DNA from: a bacterium
GTDB taxonomy: Bacteria > Patescibacteriota > Dojkabacteria > JAKAPS01
Direction: 5' to 3'
DNA length: 64,000 bases
Assembly: GCA_021806925.1 (NCBI GenBank)
Contig: JAKAPS010000001.1
Span: 1,237 to 65,236 of the forward strand
This document shows positions 1 to 51,025 of this stretch, piece after piece (positions within the stretch are counted from its first letter, which is position 1; each line of letters opens with the position of its first letter). A model generated the notes under the pieces. It ran no database searches and had not been told where the DNA came from. It saw only the letters and a program-made list of their open reading frames with translations. Both the position numbers and the translations under genes were made by a program.

Positions 1-1102
1 TTGTATGATTATTAAATATTATTTTACTTATTTCTATTTTTTCATCATTTTTTAATGAGTGAATAAATTTTAGTAATGACTGAACATCAAGCGCTGGATA
101 TATAACAAGAATATATTCCATAACTAATATTTCAGCCGCAGAATATTTCTTTGAAATAAGTTTGATATTTTGTTCTATATATTTCCCGTAATTATCAATT
201 TTTCTAACATACTTAAGAATATTTAACCTTTTATTTATATATTCTGATAATACGCTAATATTAGTCTTTACCGTCATATTAGATTCAGTATGGCGTATCA
301 AATCTGGTGCTTCTGGTAGGAATCCAAATTTTGAAATTACTTTGTCATCAGGAACAAAAAGTGACTCGAGCTGATCAGCTATATTTTTAAATGGTAATCC
401 ATTATGTGCATTCAATTCAGAAATTATTCTTGCCCATTCACGTGCAGATGTAATATATGCAAAAGAACCTTTAAACCCTGTTAATAAGAAATATCTAGCA
501 CAATCAAATACTCGTGAACGCAATGCAGATTGATCTTTCAAATCATCTTTTGGTTTGAAAAATTTAGTGAATTCATCAGTCAAGATTGATACATATTTAT
601 TATATGATTTTATAGATAAAGCCTCCAGCTCCCTGTATCTTATATTTGCCTCATCAAAATTTACATTATTCTTATCAATGAACAGTGACAAATCAGATAG
701 TGAGCTTCTATTAAAATCCTGGTATCTTGTTGAACGTGATTGACCTGCTCCTACTGATGTATTATAGAAGAAATAGAATTCAAAAAAAATTGGTATATTT
801 TCTATATATGCAAATAATAAAGCCATATCGCCAACTGATGCATGTCCATAGTTCTTGAATATATCAGCAAGTTTTGTTTGTGCATCCTTTTTAGCATTCT
901 TTATTTCCAATAAAAGTTGATTTATTGATTTGTCAGATCTTGAGTATCTTGCTCCAGCAAAAGCTATAATCGATGGATACTGGTGTTTCAGATATGCTAT
1001 TGTAGTTGATGTTGAATATCCTGTTACTGTGTCCATTACACTAAACAAATTAGTGCCTAATTCTCTCTTTTTATGTAATGAGTACTTAAAATCTTTGTTC
1101 AT
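1..1102 (-). CDS. ThyX-like (flavin-dependent thymidylate synthase family) protein, divergent. The N-terminus lies in the window and the C-terminus runs off the window start.
   Basis: Hand translation of the minus strand from the ATG (complement of 1100-1102) gives an open frame to position 1 (more than 365 aa) with an in-frame stop just upstream. It contains the ThyX-like motif YGHASVGDM (compare GHxSVxEH) followed by IPIFFEF and SRSTRY (compare the S-x-RY motif). The canonical RHR motif is replaced by FYNT. The gene is absent from the ORF track because no stop occurs inside the window. Confidence 0.4.
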   Translation of the reverse strand, partial: MNKDFKYSLHKKRELGTNLFSVMDTVTGYSTSTTIAYLKHQYPSIIAFAGARYSRSDKSINQLLLEIKNAKKDAQTKLADIFKNYGHASVGDMALLFAYIENIPIFFEFYFFYNTSVGAGQSRSTRYQDFNRSSLSDLSLFIDKNNVNFDEANIRYRELEALSIKSYNKYVSILTDEFTKFFKPKDDLKDQSALRSRVFDCARYFLLTGFKGSFAYITSAREWARIISELNAHNGLPFKNIADQLESLFVPDDKVISKFGFLPEAPDLIRHTESNMTVKTNISVLSEYINKRLNILKYVRKIDNYGKYIEQNIKLISKKYSAAEILVMEYILVIYPALDVQSLLKFIHSLKNDEKIEISKIIFNNHT

Positions 1103-1298
1103 AATATATAAATATATTAGTTTGTATTAATATATCACTTTCACATGCATGTATATATCTCTATTGAAAAATAGCAAAGTGGAAACAAGATATATGCTTC
1201 TTTGTAAAAATCACAAATGAAACAGACATGTTTTGTGCACTCTTATAACCTTTTAATGTTGTAATCACAATAAATCTAATGTAAAATCTTAAATAATT

Positions 1299-2417
1299 AT
1301 GGATACAACTAAACTTGAAGCAGTTACACAAGAAATAATTGGATTAGAGGAATTAAAAAAATATTTATCTGAGAACAAACATCTGCAGCACTATATTGGT
1401 TTTGAAATATCAGGTTTGGTACATCTTGGTACTGGATTAACTACAGGTATAGTTATAAGGGAATTACAAAAACTTGGAGTAAATGTATCATTTTATCTAG
1501 CAGATTGGCATACTTGGATAAATAATAAACTAGGAGGCGACATGATATTTATTGATAAAGTTTCAAGAGAATATTTTGAACCAGCTCTTAAAATATCAGC
1601 AAGAATTGCAGGAGCAGATGATACAAAAATTAAAGTAATTCGCGGAAGCGAATTGTATCATAATAATGATGATTACTGGAAAAGTGTTATAGATATATCA
1701 AAATCACTTACTCTATCACGAGTAACAAAGTCAACAACAATACTCGGAAGGGAAGATTCAGCATCAATGCCTTTCGCATTTCTTATGTATCCACCAATGC
1801 AGGTTGCAGATATATATGAAATGAAATGTGACATATGTCATGCAGGAACTGACCAAAGGAAAGTACATGTTATTGCAAGAGAAGTAGCAGAGAAATTGAA
1901 AATATCTCCATTAAAAGATGATGATGGAAAGAATAAAAAGCCGATTGCTATACATCAACCACTTTTACTTGGACTTCAAAAGCCAAAGACATGGCCTATA
2001 CCTAATGATATTGAAAAAGATGTAATAAGAACTGAGATGAAAATGAGTAAATCTATACCTGGAAGTTCAATTTTTGTTCACGATAGTGAGGCAGATATAA
2101 AGGAAAAAATAAATAAAGCATTCTGCCCAGAAGGAGAAGTAGAGATCAACCCAATTCTTGATTGGGCAAAACATATTATTTTCCCTATAGTTAGTCATAT
2201 CGTAATAAAAAGGGATGGAAAATACGGAGGTGATATAGAATTACATTCGTATGAAGAACTAGAAGAAATATATAAATCTGGCGGTCTATTCTCTCTAGAT
2301 CTTAAAAATGCTATCGCAGATATTTTGATTGATATATTAACACCTGCAAGGGAAGCATTTTCAAGTAAAGAAAAGCAATCACTAATAGAATCAATTAAAA
2401 ACAATCAAACAAGATAG
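1299..2417 (+). CDS. tyrS: Tyrosyl-tRNA synthetase, archaeal/eukaryal type (class Ic aaRS)
   Basis: YIGFEISGLVHLGTG (HIGH-region equivalent), YPPMQVADI, KMSKS motif, KAFCPEGEVEINPI, and a C-terminal GGDIELHSYEELEEIY...LDLKNAIADILIDIL that matches archaeal TyrRS closely along its length. Confidence 0.85.
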   Translation: MDTTKLEAVTQEIIGLEELKKYLSENKHLQHYIGFEISGLVHLGTGLTTGIVIRELQKLGVNVSFYLADWHTWINNKLGGDMIFIDKVSREYFEPALKISARIAGADDTKIKVIRGSELYHNNDDYWKSVIDISKSLTLSRVTKSTTILGREDSASMPFAFLMYPPMQVADIYEMKCDICHAGTDQRKVHVIAREVAEKLKISPLKDDDGKNKKPIAIHQPLLLGLQKPKTWPIPNDIEKDVIRTEMKMSKSIPGSSIFVHDSEADIKEKINKAFCPEGEVEINPILDWAKHIIFPIVSHIVIKRDGKYGGDIELHSYEELEEIYKSGGLFSLDLKNAIADILIDILTPAREAFSSKEKQSLIESIKNNQTR

Positions 2418-21458: not shown

Positions 21459-23480
21459 ATGAAAGGGAAAATCTTGCTATTGTTTTTTATTCCCTTACTG
21501 TCTATTCTCTATTTTTTTAGACCATTTACAAATGTATACGGTGCTACAGTTTGCTCTAATACACCAAATGAATTAAATATAAGCAACCAATTTTTACAAA
21601 ATAACGTTTATGCAGGAGTTCCATTTCCTCTTGTTATTTATGCATGTAATTCAAGTGGTCAAATAGATTCTACATTTAATGGAAATGTTCAATTGACAGA
21701 TAGTACAACTACTCTCTACCCATCTAGTACAACTAATTTTGTCGATGGTGTATGGTCTGGGCAAGTTACAATAACTAGAGCAATTAATTCTGATCAAATA
21801 ACTGCATACAGTTCTCTTTATGGAAACGGTATATCATCATCATTTAATGTATTACCTTCAGAAAATGGAATAATTGAAACAATAATACAGGGTTCAAATC
21901 AATCTGGGGTAGTAGGAAGCAATCTTCCACAGGCATTAAGTGTTACAACAACTGACCAATTCGGGAATATAGTCTCAGGCGTTGGCGTCACATTTACAAT
22001 TGCTCCTCCACCTAGTGGTGCTACAGGACAAAGCCTTTCAAACTATAGTGCAATTACTAATTCCAGTGGTTCTGCATCAACAGTGATGACATTAGGTACG
22101 AAAGAAGGAATATACATTGTTACCGTTCAAGTCTCAACTGGATCTTCAAAAACAAGCTCACAATATTATGAGTATGCTAGTAGCGGATCACTTGCAGTGT
22201 TAAATATATCTCCAGCAAGTGCTATTGTTCCTCAAGGAGGAGTTATTAATTTTCAAGCAAGCGGACTTGATAAATATGGTAATCCAGTAACAATATCTTC
22301 ACCTGTTTGGTCAATATCTAATGGTGGAGGTACAATCGATCAAAATGGAAATTTTACTGCAGGACAAACAACTGGCATGTACTATAACACAGTTTCTGCT
22401 GCAATCGGAGGTATAGGAACTACAGCAACAGTTAATATAATTTCAGCACAAAATGGTTCAGGGAGTGGAACAGGAGCTACATCAACACCAACTCCATCTC
22501 CAACTCCTACTCCAGACTATGTAACTGTTACACCAACTCCAACACCAACTCCTGATTATGTCACATTAACACCTACTCCATCACCAGATCCTATCGATCA
22601 TGTGCTTATAAATCCAAATCCTGTAACCGTTTCTCAAGGTGAATCAGTGTCTATTACTGCAACTGCGTATGATGCAAATAATAATCCATTGAATGGAACA
22701 TTTAATTGGGTTATATCAACTGGACTTGGAACACTTAGTTCAAATTATGGATCAAGTGTTACTTTGAATGCTGGTAATACACCTGGAAATGGTACAATAT
22801 CAGTTTCTGCTCTTAATTCAACAGGATCAAAAAGTGATACTGTAAATGTAACAATAATTCCTAGCCCGCTCGCACAAAAATTACTTAATGATAATATTGG
22901 AGGAGGACACTTCTATATAAAAAACATAGGGAATCAGACTACAAACACTCCATTTCTTGTAATAGTTATGGCAGAAGATAACAACAATAATATAATTAAG
23001 AATTTTAATAGTCCTATTGTAATTGATGATACTACGCATACAATAACACCTGGTAGCGGAACTAATTTCATAAACGGAATATGGTCTGGAAACGAAGTTA
23101 TCACAACTCCACAGAATAATGATGTTGTATCTGTTTCTGGCGGTGGTATAACTGGAACAAGTAATGAGTTCAATGTTACTGGTAAATCACCTCCAAATAT
23201 ATTTTCAACACTATCAAGCAAAATATCAAGTGTTATTGTACAAGCAAATAGTGGAACAAATTCTAAATTTGATTCAAGAATAATTAGTGCTGGATTAATA
23301 TCTGGTCTTGGACTTCTAGGTAGCGCACTAAGTATTGGACTAATGTCTTCAAAGGGCTTAGAGGCAATTGGAAGAAACCCCTATGCAAGAGGGAAGATAC
23401 AAATCTCAATGTTAATATCAACAGTGGTATGTATCGGAATATCTATTGCAGGGATTGTACTGTCTATAGTAATAAAGTGA
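21459..23480 (+). CDS. Large secreted Ig-like (Big) domain protein with a Thr/Pro linker and a C-terminal ATP synthase c-subunit-like transmembrane hairpin
   Basis: Signal peptide, then repeated beta-rich segments resembling bacterial Ig-like domains. A TPTPSPTPTPDYVTVTPTPTPTPDYVTLTPTPSPDP linker follows. The C-terminal 65 aa (GLISGLGLLGSALSIGLMSSKGLEAIGRNPYARGKIQISMLISTVVCIGISIAGIVLSIV) align with F-type AtpE (GxGxGxG helix, ARQP-like loop, second helix). Confidence 0.55.
   Translation: MKGKILLLFFIPLLSILYFFRPFTNVYGATVCSNTPNELNISNQFLQNNVYAGVPFPLVIYACNSSGQIDSTFNGNVQLTDSTTTLYPSSTTNFVDGVWSGQVTITRAINSDQITAYSSLYGNGISSSFNVLPSENGIIETIIQGSNQSGVVGSNLPQALSVTTTDQFGNIVSGVGVTFTIAPPPSGATGQSLSNYSAITNSSGSASTVMTLGTKEGIYIVTVQVSTGSSKTSSQYYEYASSGSLAVLNISPASAIVPQGGVINFQASGLDKYGNPVTISSPVWSISNGGGTIDQNGNFTAGQTTGMYYNTVSAAIGGIGTTATVNIISAQNGSGSGTGATSTPTPSPTPTPDYVTVTPTPTPTPDYVTLTPTPSPDPIDHVLINPNPVTVSQGESVSITATAYDANNNPLNGTFNWVISTGLGTLSSNYGSSVTLNAGNTPGNGTISVSALNSTGSKSDTVNVTIIPSPLAQKLLNDNIGGGHFYIKNIGNQTTNTPFLVIVMAEDNNNNIIKNFNSPIVIDDTTHTITPGSGTNFINGIWSGNEVITTPQNNDVVSVSGGGITGTSNEFNVTGKSPPNIFSTLSSKISSVIVQANSGTNSKFDSRIISAGLISGLGLLGSALSIGLMSSKGLEAIGRNPYARGKIQISMLISTVVCIGISIAGIVLSIVIK
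22486..22590 (+). repeat. Imperfect tandem repeat DNA encoding the TPTPTPDYVT(V/L)TPTP linker
   Basis: ACTCCAACTCC...GACTATGTAACTGTTACACC units are visible in the sequence. Confidence 0.5.
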
Positions 23481-23734: not shown

Positions 23735-24982
23735 ATGGATGAAACTTTAGCTATACAAAATCCATGGTGGGAAGGAAGGCCATTGAAAAAATCAGTAGAA
23801 AGGAAAGAAGCACTATATGCCCTTAAACAAAGAGTAAAAAATAATAGAGTTTGTATGCTACTCGGTGGAAGGAGAGTTGGTAAAACGACCCTTATACATC
23901 AATACATTGGCGAATTATTGAATACTGGTGTTGAACCAAAAAATATATGCTATATTCTTCTTGATTCTAATGCATTCGAGAAGATATCAATATTTGAACT
24001 AATAAGAAAATACCGACAAATACACAACTTAAAAAGAGATGAGAATGTTTATTTATTTCTTGATGAAATTCAATATAAGGATAATTGGGAGCAATATATC
24101 AAAAATATTTATGATACTGAACCAAATATAAATGTTATGTTATCTGGATCAGCAAGTTTTAAAATTCATACTAAAACCTCATTTTTAACTGGACGATTTT
24201 CAATTCTTTATCTTTATCCCTTGTCATTTAAAGAATTTCTTCAATTTAAAAACATACAAATCTCCCTATCTGAAAAGTATATATATGAAAATGAGTTAAA
24301 TGAATATCTTCTAAAAGGAGGTTATCCTGAATATCTTTTGACTGAAGATTATCAATACTTTCCAAATCTGGTTGACAGTATAATCTATAAGGATTTTGTC
24401 GAATATTTCAATATAAAGAATCTAAACATAGTAAAAGATTTACTTAAGCTTATTGCTGATAGAACTGGATCTCATACGAGTCTTTCAAAATTAGGAAAAA
24501 TATTATCAATAGCCAAGGAAACAGTAAGAGATTATGTCTTTGCACTAAAGGAAACATTTACTATTTATGAATTACAAAGATATGCTACATCAAGAAATGA
24601 AAGGATTTACTTTCCCAAAAAATATTATATAAATGATAATGGTTTATTATTTAACTTGAGCGGTAAGTTTAATAAAGGGCAAGTTGCAGAGCAAACACTT
24701 TTTGATTTCTTATATAAAAAGTATAATGAATCATTGTACTTTTATTATTACGATGGTATAGAGATAGATTTTCTTATTAAGGACGCTGATGGAATTCAGT
24801 TAATTGAATCTAAATATATTAATGATGTAGAAGAATTCGATTCGAAATTACTTGTTAAAGCTATGGAGACATTGAAAGTTAGTAAGGCTGTTGTAATAAC
24901 AGAATCTCTTGAAAATACAATAGAATTTAGTAATAAGTCTATAGAATATATTCCCCTATGGAAATATATTCTTTCTCTGTAA
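23735..24982 (+). CDS. AAA+ ATPase of the AAA_14/DUF4143 family
   Basis: Walker A GGRRVGKTTL, Walker B LFLDEIQ and the characteristic C-terminal DUF4143-like region. Confidence 0.8.
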   Translation: MDETLAIQNPWWEGRPLKKSVERKEALYALKQRVKNNRVCMLLGGRRVGKTTLIHQYIGELLNTGVEPKNICYILLDSNAFEKISIFELIRKYRQIHNLKRDENVYLFLDEIQYKDNWEQYIKNIYDTEPNINVMLSGSASFKIHTKTSFLTGRFSILYLYPLSFKEFLQFKNIQISLSEKYIYENELNEYLLKGGYPEYLLTEDYQYFPNLVDSIIYKDFVEYFNIKNLNIVKDLLKLIADRTGSHTSLSKLGKILSIAKETVRDYVFALKETFTIYELQRYATSRNERIYFPKKYYINDNGLLFNLSGKFNKGQVAEQTLFDFLYKKYNESLYFYYYDGIEIDFLIKDADGIQLIESKYINDVEEFDSKLLVKAMETLKVSKAVVITESLENTIEFSNKSIEYIPLWKYILSL

Positions 24983-43628: not shown

Positions 43629-44768
43629 TTACAAAAGTATTTTATCAAGTGTTAGTAATGCTTCTTTAAACGGAATAATATCAATACCATCTATATACTG
43701 CATTACACTACCCCCATATATAACATGACATATAGCTGACGGATAATCCTTCCTGAATATCTTAAGATTTCTAATATCATTTGATGATATATTTCTTTTA
43801 CTCTTAATTTCGAAAGCATGAAGCTTATTATCATTGTATGCAATAAAATCCACCTCTACACCGCTTTTTGTCCTGTAATAATACAACTTATACCCTAGCT
43901 GCAAGTAATCATTGATTGCAAGTAAATTTTGAAAAAAAAGACTTTCTAATGCAATACCGCCTATTTCCTCAGGTTTATCAAATACACCATTTGGTCTTAT
44001 TGCTCTATATATTCCTACATCAAAAAAATAAAATTTACTATGGTTTATTAACCGTCTCTTCGCCTTTTTTGAAAAAAAAGGCAATCTTAAACCAACTAAC
44101 AGATCCTCAAGTATATTAAAATAAATTTCTACAACTTTCCTACCAACTGATGATTCTCTTCCAACCTCAGAAATATTTAACACTGAACCTTGTGAGAAGC
44201 TTGCAGCTTCTAAAAATCTTGAGAAAGATCCAATATTACGAGTGATCCCCTCTTGAATTATCTCTTGTTGCAGATATGTTTTAACATAATCTGATATATA
44301 CTTTTTCATATCTTCCTCATAAAATACTGATGGTAATCCACCAAATTCCAAGTAATTTTTCAGAGATAATCTCTCCCCCAATTCAATAGCAGTAAGTGGA
44401 TACATAAAGTATGTTAATGCCCTTCCACCTAGTAGGTTCTGTCCGCTTTTTCTTAGTTTCCTTGCACTAGAACCAGTTAATATAAATTTGTATTTCTCTA
44501 CCTCTATTAGACGATGCACCTCATTTAGTAATTCTGGGACCATTTGGATTTCGTCAATTATTATCCAATCTTTAAAATCTTGTTTAATAAAATCTGATAA
44601 TCTTGAAGGATTAGCAACAAGCCTTGTATATGTTTCTGAGTACAATAGGTCTATGTATATTGCGTTAGGAAATGTATTTTTAACCCATGTTGTTTTACCA
44701 GTCCCCCTTGCTCCAAATAAAAAGAAACTCTTGTTGGAAGGGAATTTTTTAAGTAGTCTTGTATACAT
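43629..44768 (-). CDS. AAA+ ATPase of the AAA_14/DUF4143 family (second copy)
   Basis: Walker A FGARGTGKTT, Walker B IIIDEIQ and a DUF4143-like C-terminus. The start is uncertain; the ORF track extends it to 44897. Confidence 0.75.
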   Translation of the reverse strand: MYTRLLKKFPSNKSFFLFGARGTGKTTWVKNTFPNAIYIDLLYSETYTRLVANPSRLSDFIKQDFKDWIIIDEIQMVPELLNEVHRLIEVEKYKFILTGSSARKLRKSGQNLLGGRALTYFMYPLTAIELGERLSLKNYLEFGGLPSVFYEEDMKKYISDYVKTYLQQEIIQEGITRNIGSFSRFLEAASFSQGSVLNISEVGRESSVGRKVVEIYFNILEDLLVGLRLPFFSKKAKRRLINHSKFYFFDVGIYRAIRPNGVFDKPEEIGGIALESLFFQNLLAINDYLQLGYKLYYYRTKSGVEVDFIAYNDNKLHAFEIKSKRNISSNDIRNLKIFRKDYPSAICHVIYGGSVMQYIDGIDIIPFKEALLTLDKILL

Positions 44769-44934
44769 ACTAGCATAGTATAACACACAAATACGGAGAA
44801 ATGGAATGGAAAATTCCAAAATGCCTGCCAAAATGGAGTTAGCGATTCCATTTTGACATAATTTTACATCTATAAAAAACTGCAATAAATCCACCAATTA
44901 CATGGTAAAGTCGATTATTATACGCATTATACCC

Positions 44935-45204
44935 CTATTTTATAGTGTTTGATCTATTTATAACTTCTAGTGGTTGTTTTCTTCCACCAGCAATATTTAA
45001 TATATCAAAAGGGTCCTGAATGTATGTAAATACTATCGTGTATAGAATAATAAAAACAGGAACATAAATTGTTATTGCTACAATAAAATGATATATGGAA
45101 ATAAAGCCAAAATAATTAAATATTTTACCACCAAATACATAAAATACGACTAGAAATAAAATAACAATTAATGCTTCTATTATACAACCAATTTGATTTT
45201 TCAT
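44935..45204 (-). CDS. Small membrane protein, hypothetical
   Basis: 89 aa, two TM helices. Confidence 0.25.
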   Translation of the reverse strand: MKNQIGCIIEALIVILFLVVFYVFGGKIFNYFGFISIYHFIVAITIYVPVFIILYTIVFTYIQDPFDILNIAGGRKQPLEVINRSNTIK

Positions 45205-47303
45205 TCTTCTATATTCCAGTTTATATTATCACCAGATTTTATATCCCCTTGTATTATTTTTTCAACAATAGGGTCTTCAATTTTCTCCTCAACCATTCTC
45301 TTTAATGGTCTTGCACCATATTTATCAGAAATGCCATTCTTTGCAATAAATTCAATTGATTCATCTGGTACTGTCAATGTTATATTCTTATCTTTTAATC
45401 TACTAGCTAAATCTTTAATAAATATCTCAACTATTTTCTTTCCAGCATCAACATTTAGTTTGTTGAATTTAATTATCTTATCAATTCTATTTAAAAATTC
45501 AACTCTAAAGAATGTATTAAGCTTATACTCATCAACAATATTTGACGTCATAATAATAATTGTGTTCTTAAAATCAACAGTTTTACCCTGTCCATCAGTA
45601 AGTCTACCATCATCAAGAACTTGCAAAAATATATCAAATATTTTTGGATTTGCTTTTTCGACCTCATCAAGAAGAATTAAAGAATATGGTTTCTGCAACA
45701 CTTTATTTGTTAATTGGCCGCCTTCCTCATATCCTACATAACCTGGAGGAGCTCCAACCAATCTATCAACAGTATGCGTCTCTGAGTATTCACTCATATC
45801 AATTCTAATCATTGCACTTTCATCCTTGTATATTACATTGGCAAGTGCTTTTGCTAATTGAGTTTTTCCAGTACCAGACGGACCAAGAAATAGGAATGAT
45901 CCAATGGGTCTCTTTGGATCTCTTAATCCAGCACGTGACCTCTTTATAGTCTTTGATACTGCCTCAACTGCTTCATCCTGACCAATAACACTCTTTTCAA
46001 GTATATTTTCTAGATTCTGCAAATCCTGTATTTCCTGTAAAGAAATATCCTCAATAGGTATATTTGTTTTTTGAGCAAGAACAAATTTCATAGTACTTAT
46101 AGATATCTCGTCTTCATTCTTTATTTTTGATTGAGAAATTGAATCATCAATAAGAGAAATTGCACTCGCAGGTAAAAAAGTATCATGTATGTACCTTTTT
46201 GCAAGTGAAATAGCTAAATCTGAAAATCCATTTTCAAATTTCACACCTTTTTCTCTCTCAATGTATGAAACAACAATTTTTTTCACTAAGTCAGCCTCAG
46301 GTTCATCCATAAAAACAATTTCACTATTCTTTATCAAATTCTTGTTATTCTTCATCATCAATTGATATAGAGAGAAATCAATTGGAATTACTGCGTAAAA
46401 TGGAGATAATAGGATATCATTTATTAAGTCTTCATAATCCTCTTTAAGTGTCCTGTTATCAGATCCGTTTGATTCAAGATTTTCTAAATATATAACTACC
46501 TTATTCTTGTTATTTAGTACACTTGATATTTTCTTTATATTATATATTCTTTCTAAATAATCTGGTTTTGATAAATCAACATCATATATTATCGATCCCT
46601 TGAATATGGAATCATTACCATCTGAAATATTTGCAAGCAGGTATTTTGTTGATTTCTTACCTATTCCGTCATTTCCAACTAATAGTACATTTCTTTTTGT
46701 GTTTTTGTAGAATATCCTTATAATCTGTTCTGTTATATTATCCCTTGGAATATACGATTCATCAGCTTGTAAATTAATTAATGGATTATCCTCATCACTT
46801 TCTTTGTTATTAAGAAATTCTGATGAATATATATCAGTAGATTTTTCATTTGGTATATTTAGAGATTTTGCAATGAAATTAGAATCAATATCAATATATT
46901 TTTTTCTTGCTAGTGCATATAGAAGAGTACAAGGCGTAACAAATTTGTAATTTAAAGTTATTGATATATTGGTAGCATCAATTAAGCATTCATTAACCGA
47001 CTGTTTCATCGTTATTTTATCTATATTCTTCAATCCATTCTTCCCAGATGACTTTGATTCGTCATTTATCTTGTTACTACAATTACTTATGAATGAATTT
47101 TGGAATCCCATCTTCCTTACTATATCAATAGATTCTGTATCTATATTAAGTATTGCATATGCAATTACATCCTCATTTATCTCTTTAATTTTCTTCCTAT
47201 AGCAAATAGAACCAGACATAGATAATACGTCAAGCAATGTTTCAGATAAGAATGCTGTTAAATCTATAATATTAAAACTTTTAACTCCATCTCTATTATC
47301 CAT
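45201..47303 (-). CDS. ClpC/ClpB-family AAA+ chaperone with Clp_N domain, degenerate D1 and intact D2
   Basis: D2 region VIGQDEAVEAVSKTIKRSRAGLRDPKRPIGSFLFLGPSGTGKTQLAKALA...LLDEVEKANPKIFDIFLQVLDDGRLTD...IIMTSN. The D1 Walker A reads GNDGIGKKS, which is non-canonical. Confidence 0.8.
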   Translation of the reverse strand: MDNRDGVKSFNIIDLTAFLSETLLDVLSMSGSICYRKKIKEINEDVIAYAILNIDTESIDIVRKMGFQNSFISNCSNKINDESKSSGKNGLKNIDKITMKQSVNECLIDATNISITLNYKFVTPCTLLYALARKKYIDIDSNFIAKSLNIPNEKSTDIYSSEFLNNKESDEDNPLINLQADESYIPRDNITEQIIRIFYKNTKRNVLLVGNDGIGKKSTKYLLANISDGNDSIFKGSIIYDVDLSKPDYLERIYNIKKISSVLNNKNKVVIYLENLESNGSDNRTLKEDYEDLINDILLSPFYAVIPIDFSLYQLMMKNNKNLIKNSEIVFMDEPEADLVKKIVVSYIEREKGVKFENGFSDLAISLAKRYIHDTFLPASAISLIDDSISQSKIKNEDEISISTMKFVLAQKTNIPIEDISLQEIQDLQNLENILEKSVIGQDEAVEAVSKTIKRSRAGLRDPKRPIGSFLFLGPSGTGKTQLAKALANVIYKDESAMIRIDMSEYSETHTVDRLVGAPPGYVGYEEGGQLTNKVLQKPYSLILLDEVEKANPKIFDIFLQVLDDGRLTDGQGKTVDFKNTIIIMTSNIVDEYKLNTFFRVEFLNRIDKIIKFNKLNVDAGKKIVEIFIKDLASRLKDKNITLTVPDESIEFIAKNGISDKYGARPLKRMVEEKIEDPIVEKIIQGDIKSGDNINWNIEE

Positions 47304-47305
47304 AA

Positions 47306-47578
47306 TTAGAATGTAATAAATATAACATAGTAAGTAATTGCTAATGTGATTAGAAATACAAGTGACGTAGCTGAAAGCACTATAATTCTATATACTTTAT
47401 TCTTTTCCCTTATCTTAACATTTACAAATAACGGGTATTTATATGTAAATTTGAAACCATGTTCAGAAACCAGAAAAGATCCAAAATTAAAACAGTTATC
47501 GCACCCTTTCCCATGGCATACATGACACCTCTCAACCTTAAATGTTCCATATACACTTTTAATTTGATTTAAATCCAT
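47306..47578 (-). CDS. Zinc-ribbon (CxxC...CxxC) protein with C-terminal TM helix
   Basis: CHVCHGKGCDNC followed by a hydrophobic tail. Confidence 0.35.
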   Translation of the reverse strand: MDLNQIKSVYGTFKVERCHVCHGKGCDNCFNFGSFLVSEHGFKFTYKYPLFVNVKIREKNKVYRIIVLSATSLVFLITLAITYYVIFITF

Positions 47579-47815
47579 TACCCTAATGTATATTATACAT
47601 AATTATTGATCTGATTCAAGAATTATGTAGATTCTAATATTCAATTGTTAATCTTCTTCCCAACTTGATTAGTTTATGTGATGAAATGAATGATAATATA
47701 TACCACATTCCTTAAGAAACTTTTAACGATTTTTAATTTATTGACAAAATCCATATAAGTGTTTAGTCTAAATATAGTGTTAATAAAAATACAAGAAGGG
47801 GGTGACATATAGATT

Positions 47816-47923
47816 ATGGCAGTAGCAAAAAAGAAACCAGCTGCAAAAAAGGTTGTAAAAAAGACCGTAAAGAAGGCTGCACCTAAAAAGAAAACCGCAA
47901 CTAAAAAATCAACAAAAAGATAA
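47816..47923 (+). CDS. 35-aa Lys/Ala-rich basic protein (histone H1-like or ribosome-associated?)
   Basis: MAVAKKKPAAKKVVKKTVKKAAPKKKTATKKSTKR. A strong SD site (AAGGGGGTGA) lies 7 nt upstream and a terminator follows. The gene is absent from the ORF track because it is shorter than 60 aa. Confidence 0.5.
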   Translation: MAVAKKKPAAKKVVKKTVKKAAPKKKTATKKSTKR

Positions 47924-47946
47924 TAATTTTTCTTTATTGATTTAGA

Positions 47947-47980
47947 TAGCCCTTGATTTTTTGAGGGCTATTTTTATTTC
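47947..47980 (+). terminator. Rho-independent terminator
   Basis: Hairpin TAGCCCT-(10 nt)-AGGGCTA followed by TTTTTATTTCTATTTTTTT. Confidence 0.65.
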
Positions 47981-48027
47981 TATTTTTTTCGCTTATACTG
48001 TTAGAATATATTTCAGTAAATATCTTT

Positions 48028-50163
48028 ATGGATAATTCTCTTAACGATAAACAAAAGGAAGCTGTTGAATATTTTGACTCACCACTTCTTGTAATAGCAG
48101 GAGCAGGTAGCGGAAAAACAAAGACACTTACATATAAAATATATTTTTTAATAAAGGAATTAAAATATAGTCCACAAAATATATTAGCAGTCACTTTCAC
48201 AAATAAAGCTGCTAATGAAATGAAAACCCGTATAAATGAATTATTAAATGAAAATATATCCCTTCCATTTTTAGGGACATTTCACTCAATTTGTGTGAAA
48301 ATACTTAGGAGCCATGGTAATATATTGGAAATACCCAACAATTTCAACATATATGATACATCTGATAGCGAGAAGGCAATACTACAAGCGATGGAAATAT
48401 TAAGAATTTCGCCTAAATCGATATCAGTGAAATCCGCTAAATCATTCATACAAAATTGTAAAAATGAATTAACTGCACCTGAAGACTACCCTGTTTATTC
48501 AAACTCTGCAAGTGGTTTGATATCAATCTATAACACATATACAGAAATCTTAAAACAAAGTAAGGCTCTTGATTTTGACGATCTATTACTTAAGACTGTT
48601 GAATTACTTAAGTATAGAGACGAATTGGAATATTTTAGAAATAAATTTCAATATATTTTAGTTGATGAGTATCAGGATACCAATGTTGCACAATATACAT
48701 TAATAAAGATGCTTGTTGGAGATAGAAATAATATATTTTGTGTAGGTGATCCTGATCAAAATATCTATTCATTTAGAGGAGCAAATATAAATAATATATT
48801 GAATTTTGAAAAAGACTATAAAAATTGTAAAGTAATTACATTAGATCAGAATTATAGATCATCGAAAACCATACTTGAGGCTAGTGAAAACATAATAAAG
48901 AAGAATTCACAGAGAAAGGATAAAAACATGTGGACCACAAATCCAAATGGAAACAAAATAATTCATTACTGTGGACTTGATGAAGAAGATGAAGCAAATT
49001 TTGTTAAAGATATAGTTTTAAAAAATTATGATAAAAATGATATCGCTGTTCTTTATAGGACAAATGCACAATCCCGTGCAATTGAAGAAGTTTTGATAAG
49101 ATACGCAATATCATATAGGCTAATAGGTGGATTAAAGTTTTATGACAGAAAAGAGATAAAAGATTTATTAGCTTTCTTTAAATTAATTCACAACCCATAT
49201 GATACAATATCATTTTCAAGAATAATAAACATACCTCCAAGGGGAATAGGTGCTGTAACAATAAAAAGAATTATTTCAAATGCATTAAATAATCAAACTG
49301 ATTTAGTGTCTGCTTTATTAAATGATAAAAAATTAATGAGTAAAGAGGCTATATACAACTTTTCAAATTCATTAAAAGAATGGATTGAAAATATCAAAAA
49401 CAATAAAACAAATTTAAAGGACTTACTTGTTGATATTTTATACAAAACTAAATATCTGGAATATATTAAAAAATCTGAAGAGGAAGATTTTGAGACAAGA
49501 AAAGAAAATATATCTGAATTGTTTACAGTTATAAACTCATATATATTAGGTGATGACGCAGCTAATTTGCTAAACAAGTTCATTGAAGATACAGCTCTTG
49601 TTGAAAATACTTCTGATAATAACCTTGATGAAGAAAACAATAAACCACAGGTAACTTTAATGAGCATTCATAACGCTAAGGGGCTGGAGTTTCATACAGT
49701 AATATTAACTGGACTTGAGGAAGGTCTTTTTCCTCATTCAAGATCGCTAAATGAGCCTAATGATATGGAAGAAGAAAGGAGACTATGCTATGTTGCAGTT
49801 ACAAGAGCAATTAAGCAATTATACATAACTCATACGTATGTAAGAAATATTTATGGACAGAGTACACAAAATAGAAAGTCAAGATTTATTGATGATATTC
49901 CAAGCAATCTTATTGAAGAATTTAAAGGGAAAAAAGCAAAGAAACGTGAAAGTAAATACAATAATACTAAATCAACTAGCACTGAAGAAGGTTTCAATGA
50001 TATGACATACATGTTAAAGACTGGACAAAGAGTTAATCATGAAATATATGGTGCTGGTAATATTATTGATTTTGATAAAGAAATAGTTTTAATTGATTTT
50101 GATAACTATGGGAAAAAGAAGATACTTATCTCTTTTGCTGATAATTTAGAATTATTGAAGTAA
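48028..50163 (+). CDS. UvrD/PcrA/Rep-family ATP-dependent DNA helicase
   Basis: Motif I AGAGSGKT, Ia TFTNKAANEM, II VDEYQDTN, III GDPDQNIYSFRGA, plus the remaining SF1 motifs in order. Confidence 0.9.
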   Translation: MDNSLNDKQKEAVEYFDSPLLVIAGAGSGKTKTLTYKIYFLIKELKYSPQNILAVTFTNKAANEMKTRINELLNENISLPFLGTFHSICVKILRSHGNILEIPNNFNIYDTSDSEKAILQAMEILRISPKSISVKSAKSFIQNCKNELTAPEDYPVYSNSASGLISIYNTYTEILKQSKALDFDDLLLKTVELLKYRDELEYFRNKFQYILVDEYQDTNVAQYTLIKMLVGDRNNIFCVGDPDQNIYSFRGANINNILNFEKDYKNCKVITLDQNYRSSKTILEASENIIKKNSQRKDKNMWTTNPNGNKIIHYCGLDEEDEANFVKDIVLKNYDKNDIAVLYRTNAQSRAIEEVLIRYAISYRLIGGLKFYDRKEIKDLLAFFKLIHNPYDTISFSRIINIPPRGIGAVTIKRIISNALNNQTDLVSALLNDKKLMSKEAIYNFSNSLKEWIENIKNNKTNLKDLLVDILYKTKYLEYIKKSEEEDFETRKENISELFTVINSYILGDDAANLLNKFIEDTALVENTSDNNLDEENNKPQVTLMSIHNAKGLEFHTVILTGLEEGLFPHSRSLNEPNDMEEERRLCYVAVTRAIKQLYITHTYVRNIYGQSTQNRKSRFIDDIPSNLIEEFKGKKAKKRESKYNNTKSTSTEEGFNDMTYMLKTGQRVNHEIYGAGNIIDFDKEIVLIDFDNYGKKKILISFADNLELLK

Positions 50164-50179
50164 AGATTAAATTAAGAAA

Positions 50180-51025
50180 ATGGGAAATACAAGAATAGAA
50201 AATATAAATGCACTGATTAAGGCCTGCCAAAACAAGATGGTAAGAACAGAATTCATTAGTAATAATGCAGTAATTGTTGATAATAGATTCTTATTCATAA
50301 ACTTTAAAACACCGCTTAATTCATCTTCATTTGAAAAATTATGCAACGATAAAGATTTCTCATTTATTGCATTTGGTAAACATGTAAAAATACCGAGATA
50401 TATATCTTTTCTTGACCCTAACATTGATAAAAAGTACAAGGACATGGGATTTACTGTATATGATTCAATTGAGGACATAGCGTGTGAAATATATAGGCAA
50501 TTTGAAAACAATATGCCATGCATTATAAAAAAGAACTCAGGTAGTCTTGGAGTTAACGTGTTCAAGACAGGAAACTATGATGACATTCTATCTGCTGTTA
50601 ATAAGATATTTAATAATGACAAGAATTATGACTATCTTCTAATTGCGTCTGAATATATTTATATAAAGACAGAGTATAGAGTTGTTGTTTTAAATAATAA
50701 GATTGAACTTGTTTACCTTAAAGACAATTCAGGTGCAAAATTTGTAGGAAATCTATCCCCTCTTCATTTTGATAATTCAAAAGCAGTAAAGATTATGGAC
50801 AGTAAAGTTATAAAACGTATAGAGATGTTTTTGAAACCTTTGTTTGATAATTTTGCGATTAATTTTGCAGGATTTGATATTGCAATAGATAATAATAATG
50901 AAATGTATTTCATTGAAATAAACTCTTCACCTGGATTTGAGATATATATAAGGGATAATGGATATAATGATATAGTAATCCTTTATGAAAAAATGATTGA
51001 ATATTTAAATAAGTTGCCTAAATAA
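50180..51025 (+). CDS. ATP-grasp domain protein (RimK/GshB-like)
   Basis: CIIKKNSGSLGVNVF, KTEYRVVVLNNKIELVY and MYFIEINSSPGFEI. Confidence 0.5.
   Translation: MGNTRIENINALIKACQNKMVRTEFISNNAVIVDNRFLFINFKTPLNSSSFEKLCNDKDFSFIAFGKHVKIPRYISFLDPNIDKKYKDMGFTVYDSIEDIACEIYRQFENNMPCIIKKNSGSLGVNVFKTGNYDDILSAVNKIFNNDKNYDYLLIASEYIYIKTEYRVVVLNNKIELVYLKDNSGAKFVGNLSPLHFDNSKAVKIMDSKVIKRIEMFLKPLFDNFAINFAGFDIAIDNNNEMYFIEINSSPGFEIYIRDNGYNDIVILYEKMIEYLNKLPK

Follow-up and report, generated by a model that had tools for sequence, protein, structure and literature searches.

The basic chlamydial protein Hc2 (HctB) is described as consecutive Lys-rich pentamers, each with two basic residues accompanied by Ala, Val, Thr or Pro, which give an evenly spaced charge and the number of which varies by strain (PMC2848022). 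Hc2-like proteins have been described in Bordetella (BpH1), Burkholderia and Herminiimonas; the affinity of Hc2 for RNA exceeds that of Hc1, and Hc2 represses translation (PMC2848022). The C-terminal tail of H1, AlgP and PhaF are polycations whose binding to DNA, RNA or polyphosphate is non-specific or semi-specific (PMC12818456, PMC9239181). Specifically, the KPAA-repeat tail of PhaF binds mRNAs near the Shine-Dalgarno (SD) sequence (PMC12818456), and the H1-like AlgP associates with polyphosphate granules (PMC9239181). [quoted passage not shown] A different kind of small basic product is encoded by rpsU (bS21), the one gene with a strong SD in Flavobacteriia, which is autoregulated via the availability of the anti-SD (PMC9976891, PMC13000453).

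Here, we analyze a small ORF in a bacterial DNA stretch of 64 kb, the whole of which is referred to below as the window. A preliminary description of this DNA had noted a Lys/Ala-rich gene of 35 codons with a strong SD and its own terminator, likened its product to DNA-compacting tails of the H1/Hc1 type and suggested that, in a minimal genome, it could be a nucleoid protein. We compare the ORF and its surroundings with those of the closest relatives, and the encoded peptide with the systems outlined above.

Results

Small ORF and its genomic setting

The small ORF occupies positions 47816..47923 on the forward strand and comprises 35 codons that begin with ATG and encode exactly MAVAKKKPAAKKVVKKTVKKAAPKKKTATKKSTKR, as originally read; the stop codon is TAA, directly followed by a second in-frame TAA (the end reads ...AGA TAA TAA). 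The encoded peptide, of 3.7 kDa, has a net charge of about +16 and lacks acidic, aromatic and large hydrophobic residues. The ORF is indeed unannotated: the source assembly (L081) contains no gene call at this place, nor anywhere between the upstream 90-aa ORF and the PcrA gene, and no exact match of the 35-aa peptide was found in a collection of 15 billion proteins.

The small gene is flanked on one side by a ClpB-like AAA+ gene (45201-47303, reverse strand) and an ORF of 90 aa with a zinc-knuckle and a transmembrane segment (47306-47578, reverse strand), and on the other, downstream, by the gene for a PcrA/UvrD helicase (48028-50163, forward strand). The 90-aa ORF is itself a member of a conserved family of 90-92 aa, with counterparts at 3839-4111 in L082, 5250-5522 in L085 and 16393-16671 in L212, whose members have a DnaJ-like CxxCxGxGC zinc-knuckle and, after it, a hydrophobic helix at the C-terminus. 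This ORF is in each case directly next to, or overlapping with, the start of the ClpB-like AAA+ gene; it has no Pfam match on record and, for the window copy, no exact match in the protein collection. Directly 3' of PcrA, at 50180-51025 on the forward strand, genes of the RimK/ATP-grasp type, which may encode peptide or poly-Glu ligases, were observed; such genes are also present at 1-1877 (reverse strand) in L212, and their position near the locus is not kept in L082 or L085.

The window has a G+C content of about 29%, and its further genes include those for an F-type ATP synthase, for a histidine kinase and for proteins resembling type IV secretion components. Its PcrA and LepA each have a 100% identical entry that stems from the same genome (contigs up to 207 kb). 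The nearest named matches of its PcrA and LepA belong to Dojkabacteria, Magasanikbacteria, Doudnabacteria and the "Patescibacteria group", at about 50% identity, and the next-closest relatives of the window show 45-48% identity in PcrA and 54-57% in LepA. Genetic code 25 (UGA=Gly) was ruled out, as TGA terminates 11 of the 45 long ORFs. Judging from these sequence comparisons, the host is assigned to a deep-branching, ultra-small lineage of CPR/Patescibacteria that employs the standard genetic code. The suggestion of a minimal genome fits this assignment, since the nearest named relatives are Patescibacteria.

Two further features of the window were recorded. A 673-aa ORF (21459-23480, forward strand) matches ATP synthase subunit c (PF00137) in its last 64 residues, which are preceded by a Big_1 Ig-like domain; this is either an over-extended ORF reaching into atpE or an unusual fusion heading the F-ATPase operon. 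Two AAA_14/DUF4143 ATPase genes lie less than 20 kb apart (23735-24982, forward strand, and 43629-44897, reverse strand, the second identified through its counterpart among the L081 gene calls) and may be mobile or defence-related paralogues.

Orthologues in the lineage

The orthologue set comprises seven members, namely the window and the six contigs on which the closest relatives of its PcrA and LepA are encoded (L082, L084, L085, L086, L211 and L212, the last from GCA_025450075.1). In all seven, an ORF of 31-43 aa that is rich in Lys, Arg, Ala and Thr is located directly upstream of PcrA: MAAAKRKTAAKKPAKKTAKKTTARKTTRKATKKR (34 aa; L082, 5753-5857), MATKATRKTAKKPAAKRTVKKVAKKPARKTAARKTTTSRTRR (42 aa; L084, 1303-1431), MATTTKKKTAAKKAPVRKTTKSGAKKTAAKKPAAKKKTAAKKR (43 aa; L085, 5757-5888), MAATKKKTVAKKPAAKKTAKKTTARKSTAKKSTARKTTARRK (42 aa; L086, 180-308), MAAKKKTARKTARKAPARKTARKTTRKAKRK (31 aa; L211, 58-153) and MATAKRKTAKKTVKKAAKKTARKTTKKAAKKR (32 aa; L212, 16864-16962), in addition to the window copy. 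The linkage with PcrA is retained in L082 and L084 although other genes are inserted further upstream, and the distance from the stop of the small ORF to the start of PcrA is 104-143 nt in each of the seven genomes. None of the seven sequences has an exact match in the 15-billion-protein collection. The two gene callers that picked up an ORF of this kind both extended its start wrongly, in the case of L212 and in that of the protein P0125 from L213, a look-alike discussed below.

All seven orthologues share an ATG-GCA start, and each contains 16-18 Lys and Arg residues and no Asp or Glu. Because these counts hold steady over lengths of 31 to 43 aa, selection acts on total positive charge and not on a fold or an exact sequence. 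At conserved residues, the orthologues differ in their synonymous codons. The preliminary description had proposed conservation in related genomes as a check; the ORF, its ATG-GCA start, SD and terminator are kept in 7/7 genomes despite a PcrA identity of 45-48%, the reverse of a situation in which only the nucleotide sequence is conserved. Nucleotide identity of the ORF compared with that of its flanks is uninformative in this case because the AT-rich sequence inflates the background.

Outside this lineage, the arrangement was not recovered. There is no such ORF within 4 kb of 80 more distant PcrA loci (37-46% identity) obtained by a contig search with PcrA, and the small ORF is absent from two other PcrA clades (P0010 and P0029). 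A composition scan of both strands of the 1.55 Mb of fetched DNA returned only the seven-member family and one look-alike (L213), which had been fetched by similarity, via a profile of five orthologues (P0125). The pattern GCCCCRAGGAGGTGAA proved unspecific in a metagenome scan, and none of the loci returned contains a K-rich small ORF.

The look-alike (L213, 4425-4517, forward strand) is a 30-aa ORF, MAVAKKKTAAKKPAAKKTVKKAVKKVAKKK, with an AGGAGG SD and hairpins downstream, which the gene caller extended to 73 aa. It was rejected as an orthologue, its neighbors being unrelated and PcrA not adjacent; the contig has a GC content of 52% and carries proteobacterium-like genes (SdhE, DjlA, ArgG and RecA). 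This ORF suggests that stand-alone polycation micro-genes are present in other phyla, too. In a scan of viral contigs, a 66-aa ORF that consists almost entirely of AAKK/RPAAKK repeats and has a GAAGGAG SD was observed in an IMG/VR contig (L236, 4571-4771, forward strand).

As the sequence is of low complexity, and all seven orthologues keep an antisense frame open along with the sense frame, the possibility was considered that the ORF is a chance reading frame in an A-rich small RNA, or that the true product is encoded in antisense. The open antisense frame is explained by the lack of Leu and, mostly, of TCA Ser codons in the sense protein, and it has neither a conserved start nor a conserved SD, whereas the promoter, SD, ATG-GCA start and terminator described here all point in the sense direction and are all conserved. 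The count of charged residues is kept as the length changes, and no chance ORF of this kind occurs in the approximately 1.5 Mb of fetched DNA. Synonymous codon choice is biased against runs of A as well. AAG accounts for 38 of the 78 Lys codons overall, or 40-57% in the small gene vs 21-31% in neighboring genes, and 5 of the 6 orthologues tested have a longest A-run below that of their synonymous shuffles (individual P values of 0.02-0.12), a combination that fits selection against slippage in real translation or transcription. With respect to known RNAs, the search of Rfam 15 over the window matched only a tRNA-Ala located elsewhere; the locus yielded two chance-level matches, of 23 bits (cut-off 54) and 19 bits (cut-off 50), and L212 yielded no match. 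A non-coding origin is thus extremely improbable in our assessment, and the comparative sequence evidence identifies the small ORF as a real protein-coding gene that was missed by annotation and is conserved in its lineage.

Promoter, terminator and transcription unit

Upstream of the small ORF, a -35 hexamer, TTGACA, contained in ATTGACAAA, is predicted from the sequence at 47741..47746 on the forward strand, and a -10 hexamer, TAGTCT, at 47764..47769, with a spacer of 17 nt. Both elements are rare, ATTGACAAA occurring once in the 64-kb window and the combination TTGACA-17-TAnnnT twice. The same motif, (T)ATTGACAAA, is found at the same distance from the ORF in all six lineage members with available upstream DNA, and a -10 element lies exactly 17 nt from TTGACA (TAATCT in four loci, TACTCT in L212 and TAGTCT in the window). 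The leader between the predicted promoter and the SD is about 40-55 nt long in the six loci, each of which displays the same order, that is, a promoter of the TTGACA-17-TAATCT type, the SD, the ORF and a strong terminator.

The intrinsic terminator spans 47944..47989 on the forward strand and consists of a 13-pair hairpin (47944-47973) with a TTTT loop and a T-rich tract that extends to about position 47989. The claim that the gene has its own terminator is borne out: this is the sole terminator-like site in the region 47000-48600, for which shuffled sequences give 0.3, and the hairpin is present when the whole predicted transcript (z-score -2.6) is folded, in the minimum free energy (MFE) structure as well as in the centroid. 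Orthologues carry AATGATCC...GGATCATTTT hairpins at the same position, and the folding energies of the 75 nt downstream of the ORF are -18.7 to -24.0 kcal/mol, compared to -17.7 kcal/mol in the window.

PcrA has a -10 element of its own 3' of the terminator in the window (an extended TGtTAGAAT at 47999-48007) and in the four other loci examined (TATAAT, TATACT or TAAGAT in the relatives); therefore, the small gene and PcrA are separate transcription units. This bears on an alternative in which the ORF would be a leader peptide rich in Lys codons that, together with an attenuator hairpin, controls the downstream pcrA/uvrD gene. Such a role would account for the position of the ORF directly 5' of PcrA in 7/7 genomes, even where genes are inserted further upstream, and for the terminator between the two. 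We regard it as very improbable, however, considering not only the separate -10 element of PcrA but also the formation of the terminator in the MFE and centroid folds with no competing antiterminator, the conservation of the N-terminus and of the total charge, which leader peptides do not need, the lack of a logical link between lysine supply and a repair helicase, and the look-alike ORF of L213, which is not adjacent to PcrA.

Shine-Dalgarno sequence and leader

The SD of the small gene, AAGGGGGTGA, is located at 47796..47805 on the forward strand, and its predicted duplex with the 16S tail, at -16.5 kcal/mol, is the strongest among the gene starts in the window, in agreement with the strong SD noted originally; the next best value is -11.6, and the median over 45 long ORFs is -1.3 kcal/mol. 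The SD variants are GGGGGTGA in the window, AGGAGGTGA in orthologues and GGGAGGTGA in L212. For the three orthologous loci that were computed (L082, L085 and L212), the duplexes of the small gene reach -17.0 to -17.7 kcal/mol, against locus medians of -1.1 to -1.5 kcal/mol. In every locus computed, the small gene has the strongest SD, a near-perfect one of 9 nt. The spacing, which had been called optimal, is slightly overstated: in the window, the ATG is 10 nt from the last base of the SD and 13 nt from its GGGGG core, which is long, whereas the orthologues have 6-8 nt after GGTGA. As a whole, the lineage is SD-poor in the loci surveyed (the 45 long ORFs of the window, L082, L085 and L212), and even rpsT has no SD. 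A moderate SD was observed at the ATP synthase gamma gene (27786, AAAGGAGGAAAA, -11.6 kcal/mol). By these predictions, the small gene carries the strongest expression signals of its neighborhood.

An anti-SD-like stretch, TCACGGCCTT (CCTTCT in L211), that could pair with the SD AGGAGGTGA is present in the leaders of the six relatives. The element is found at 5718-5747 in L082, 1266-1297 in L084, 5721-5751 in L085, 143-174 in L086, 24-53 in L211 and 16832-16858 in L212, and is absent from the window copy. Compensatory covariation in the leader hairpin was tested for and none was found, so that the hairpin is a candidate structure only. A small GGCC hairpin in the leader of the six relatives is a possible alternative pairing.

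These observations are most relevant to a second reading of the peptide, as an RNA- or ribosome-associated factor, that is, a lineage-specific small basic ribosomal protein, a chaperone of rRNA or mRNA, or a modulator of translation, possibly autoregulated via its SD. The sole strong extended SD in an SD-poor lineage in which even rpsT lacks one recalls rpsU of Flavobacteriia, and the anti-SD-like stretch in the leaders of six orthologues is a layout typical of translational feedback. Against it, the leader hairpin shows no compensatory covariation and is missing in the window genome, and moderate SDs exist elsewhere (ATP synthase gamma, -11.6), so that the ribosome need not be SD-blind. The properties of the peptide itself, described below, weigh on both sides of this reading, which overall we consider the main and a serious rival of a role on DNA, though less probable than the latter.

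Composition of the peptide and family searches

Lys and Arg make up 42-52% of the residues, and the spacers are Ala, Thr, Val, Pro and Ser. The basic residues are paired and the pairs recur every 4-5 residues, with autocorrelation peaks at lags 1, 4 and 5; the L086 and L085 peptides are mostly pentameric, whereas the window protein and that of L082 mix tetramers with pentamers. A peptide of this kind is incapable of folding alone. AlphaFold2 without an alignment predicted one short helix (residues 9-21), with a pTM of 0.30 and no fold.

Searches of Pfam, NCBIfam and PDB with the window peptide produced no match, nor did an exhaustive phmmer search against 1.84 billion representatives. The profile of five orthologues matched only at E>2, and the profile of all seven matched in PDB only the SigA chain of an RNA polymerase, through a Lys-repeat (E 0.029), and, by chance, a eukaryotic L27 (E 4.5). 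The Pfam model HC2 (PF07382) gave sub-threshold scores for 2 of the 7 orthologues (19.2 and 14.2 bits, the gathering threshold being 40); the window protein matches none of the HC2, Hc1 and linker-histone models, HC2 even at E<=10. Neither a winged-helix H1 domain nor the N-terminal dimerisation domain of Hc1 was detected with Pfam, NCBIfam or AlphaFold2. The N-terminal motif MAxAKKKxAAKK was not accepted as a sign of homology beyond the syntenic lineage, as it recurs on unrelated phage proteins in the viral-contig scan.

The resemblance to H1 and Hc noted in the preliminary description therefore stands at the level of composition, in the lack of acidic and aromatic residues, the Lys and Arg content, the dibasic periodicity and the two weak HC2 matches, and fails at the level of family membership: by the model searches, the small peptide does not belong to the Hc1, Hc2 or H1 families. 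With Hc2 and BpH1 it shares short Lys-rich repeats with two basic residues and Ala, Val, Thr or Pro, an even spacing of positive charge, the absence of acidic residues in the repeats, and a repeat number that varies between relatives, and it can be described as approximately 6-8 repeat units of the Hc2 type with no other part. Unlike the small peptide, with its 31-43 aa (about one-fifth of the length) and mixed periodicity of 4 and 5, the Hc2-type proteins are 149-237 aa long and built of strict pentamers, and Hc2 has, in a total of 165-237 aa, a conserved N-terminus of 24 aa and a C-terminal region of 69 aa (PMC2848022), both of which are missing here. Hc2 is found in a different phylum, which makes convergence likely, MAxAKKKxAAKK heads many unrelated phage proteins, and the look-alike ORF of L213 lies in an unrelated contig; accordingly, the resemblance to H1 and Hc2 is probably of a low-complexity, convergent nature.

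The C-terminal tail of H1, AlgP and PhaF (the KPAA repeats of Pseudomonas) have in common with the peptide the character of disordered polycations of low complexity composed of Lys, Ala, Pro and Thr (PMC12818456, PMC9239181). They differ from it in having one Lys per 4 residues instead of dibasic pairs, and the repeats of H1 and PhaF are tails attached to folded domains (a winged-helix and an N-terminal domain, respectively), whereas here the tail is the entire protein. Coxiella burnetii ScvA and Hq1, compared by description, are likewise small and basic. As reported by Heinzen et al. in 1996, ScvA stands alone as a peptide of about 30 aa; it is rich in Arg and Gln rather than in Lys and Ala and is stage-specific.

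With regard to an association with RNA or the ribosome, Hc2 binds RNA and represses translation (PMC2848022), and KPAA tails are found on mRNA near SDs (PMC12818456). The rpsU (bS21) gene of Flavobacteriia resembles the small gene in that its product is small and basic and in that its strong SD stands out against an otherwise SD-poor organism (PMC13000453, PMC9976891). The bS21 protein, however, folds onto the ribosome and lacks sequence similarity to the small peptide. It is conserved and has about 60-70 aa; bS22, bL37 and Thx are very small ribosomal proteins, and the size of the peptide is within their range. Yet no similarity to ribosomal proteins (bS21, bS22, bL37, Thx and similar) was found in Pfam, NCBIfam or PDB, the rapid change of length and turnover of repeats (31-43 aa) are unlike those of proteins that fit a fixed rRNA pocket, and the Lys/Ala/Thr composition is not the usual mix of rRNA-embedded peptides, which contains Arg and aromatic residues. 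A narrower proposal is that the peptide would be a lineage-specific factor associated with the ribosome or the 16S tail, with its mRNA, unique in its full 9-nt SD and, in most relatives, in an anti-SD-mimic hairpin of the leader, translated according to free anti-SD, so that the rpsU (bS21) circuit of Flavobacteriia would have been reinvented independently on the basis of a 35-aa polycation; by analogy this is conceivable, and quite unlikely. A more modest version would be that tiny stand-alone peptides of the H1-tail type form a widespread class of bacterial nucleic-acid counter-ions missed by annotation.

Binding to another polyanion, such as polyphosphate, teichoic acids, the envelope or a host surface, or export as a cationic effector, was considered as well. 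The H1-like AlgP on polyphosphate granules (PMC9239181) offers a precedent for the former; CPR bacteria are episymbionts and cationic peptides are able to act on membranes, which could speak for the latter. The small protein, however, lacks a signal peptide and, with only Ala and Val to contribute, an amphipathic or hydrophobic face, and no export gene is in conserved linkage with it. We judge this group of functions improbable.

Discussion

The reading that we place first, at a probability of about 0.45, is that the small gene encodes an abundant disordered polycation that coats and compacts nucleic acid, most likely DNA. The gene is a monocistronic micro-gene whose signals are those of high output, with a predicted consensus promoter of the sigma-70 type, a leader of roughly 40 nt, an extended SD, 35 codons and a strong terminator. 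Its product would bind polyanions electrostatically, without sequence specificity, and would coat and neutralise the AT-rich chromosomal DNA in the manner of the H1 C-terminal tail or of the Hc2/BpH1 pentamers, thus serving as a minimal nucleoid-compacting or charge-shielding protein of an ultra-small cell. The sequence comparisons show the architecture of the gene, its conservation and that of its charge, its exceptional translation signal and selection at the codon level; abundance, DNA rather than RNA as the target, and compaction are the three parts of this scheme that we infer by analogy.

The DNA role is ranked first because the peptide has the composition and the periodicity known from H1 tails and from Hc2 repeats, because length and sequence drift freely, unlike in peptides that fit a fixed rRNA pocket, and because the genome is AT-rich and Coxiella Hq1 and ScvA provide a precedent (PMC4766238). 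Adjacency to PcrA is weak support for it, as the two genes are separate transcription units. Analogy can also be turned against DNA as the target, since Lys/Ala tails bind RNA (PhaF, PMC12818456) and polyphosphate granules (AlgP, PMC9239181), too.

What is new here, then, is a putative stand-alone, minimal polycation resembling an H1 tail, the function of which is proposed by analogy. Annotation has missed a gene that is real and conserved and that, in a poorly understood lineage, is apparently designed to be highly expressed. The function of an H1 tail or of Hc2 repeats may be possible in the form of a free protein of 31-43 aa. Should its abundance match what the expression signals indicate, ultra-small CPR cells would have in this peptide a major nucleic-acid counter-ion that gene calls and databases have missed. 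The gene is also a striking exception to the SD-poor initiation of its lineage and could show how mRNAs are selected by these ribosomes.
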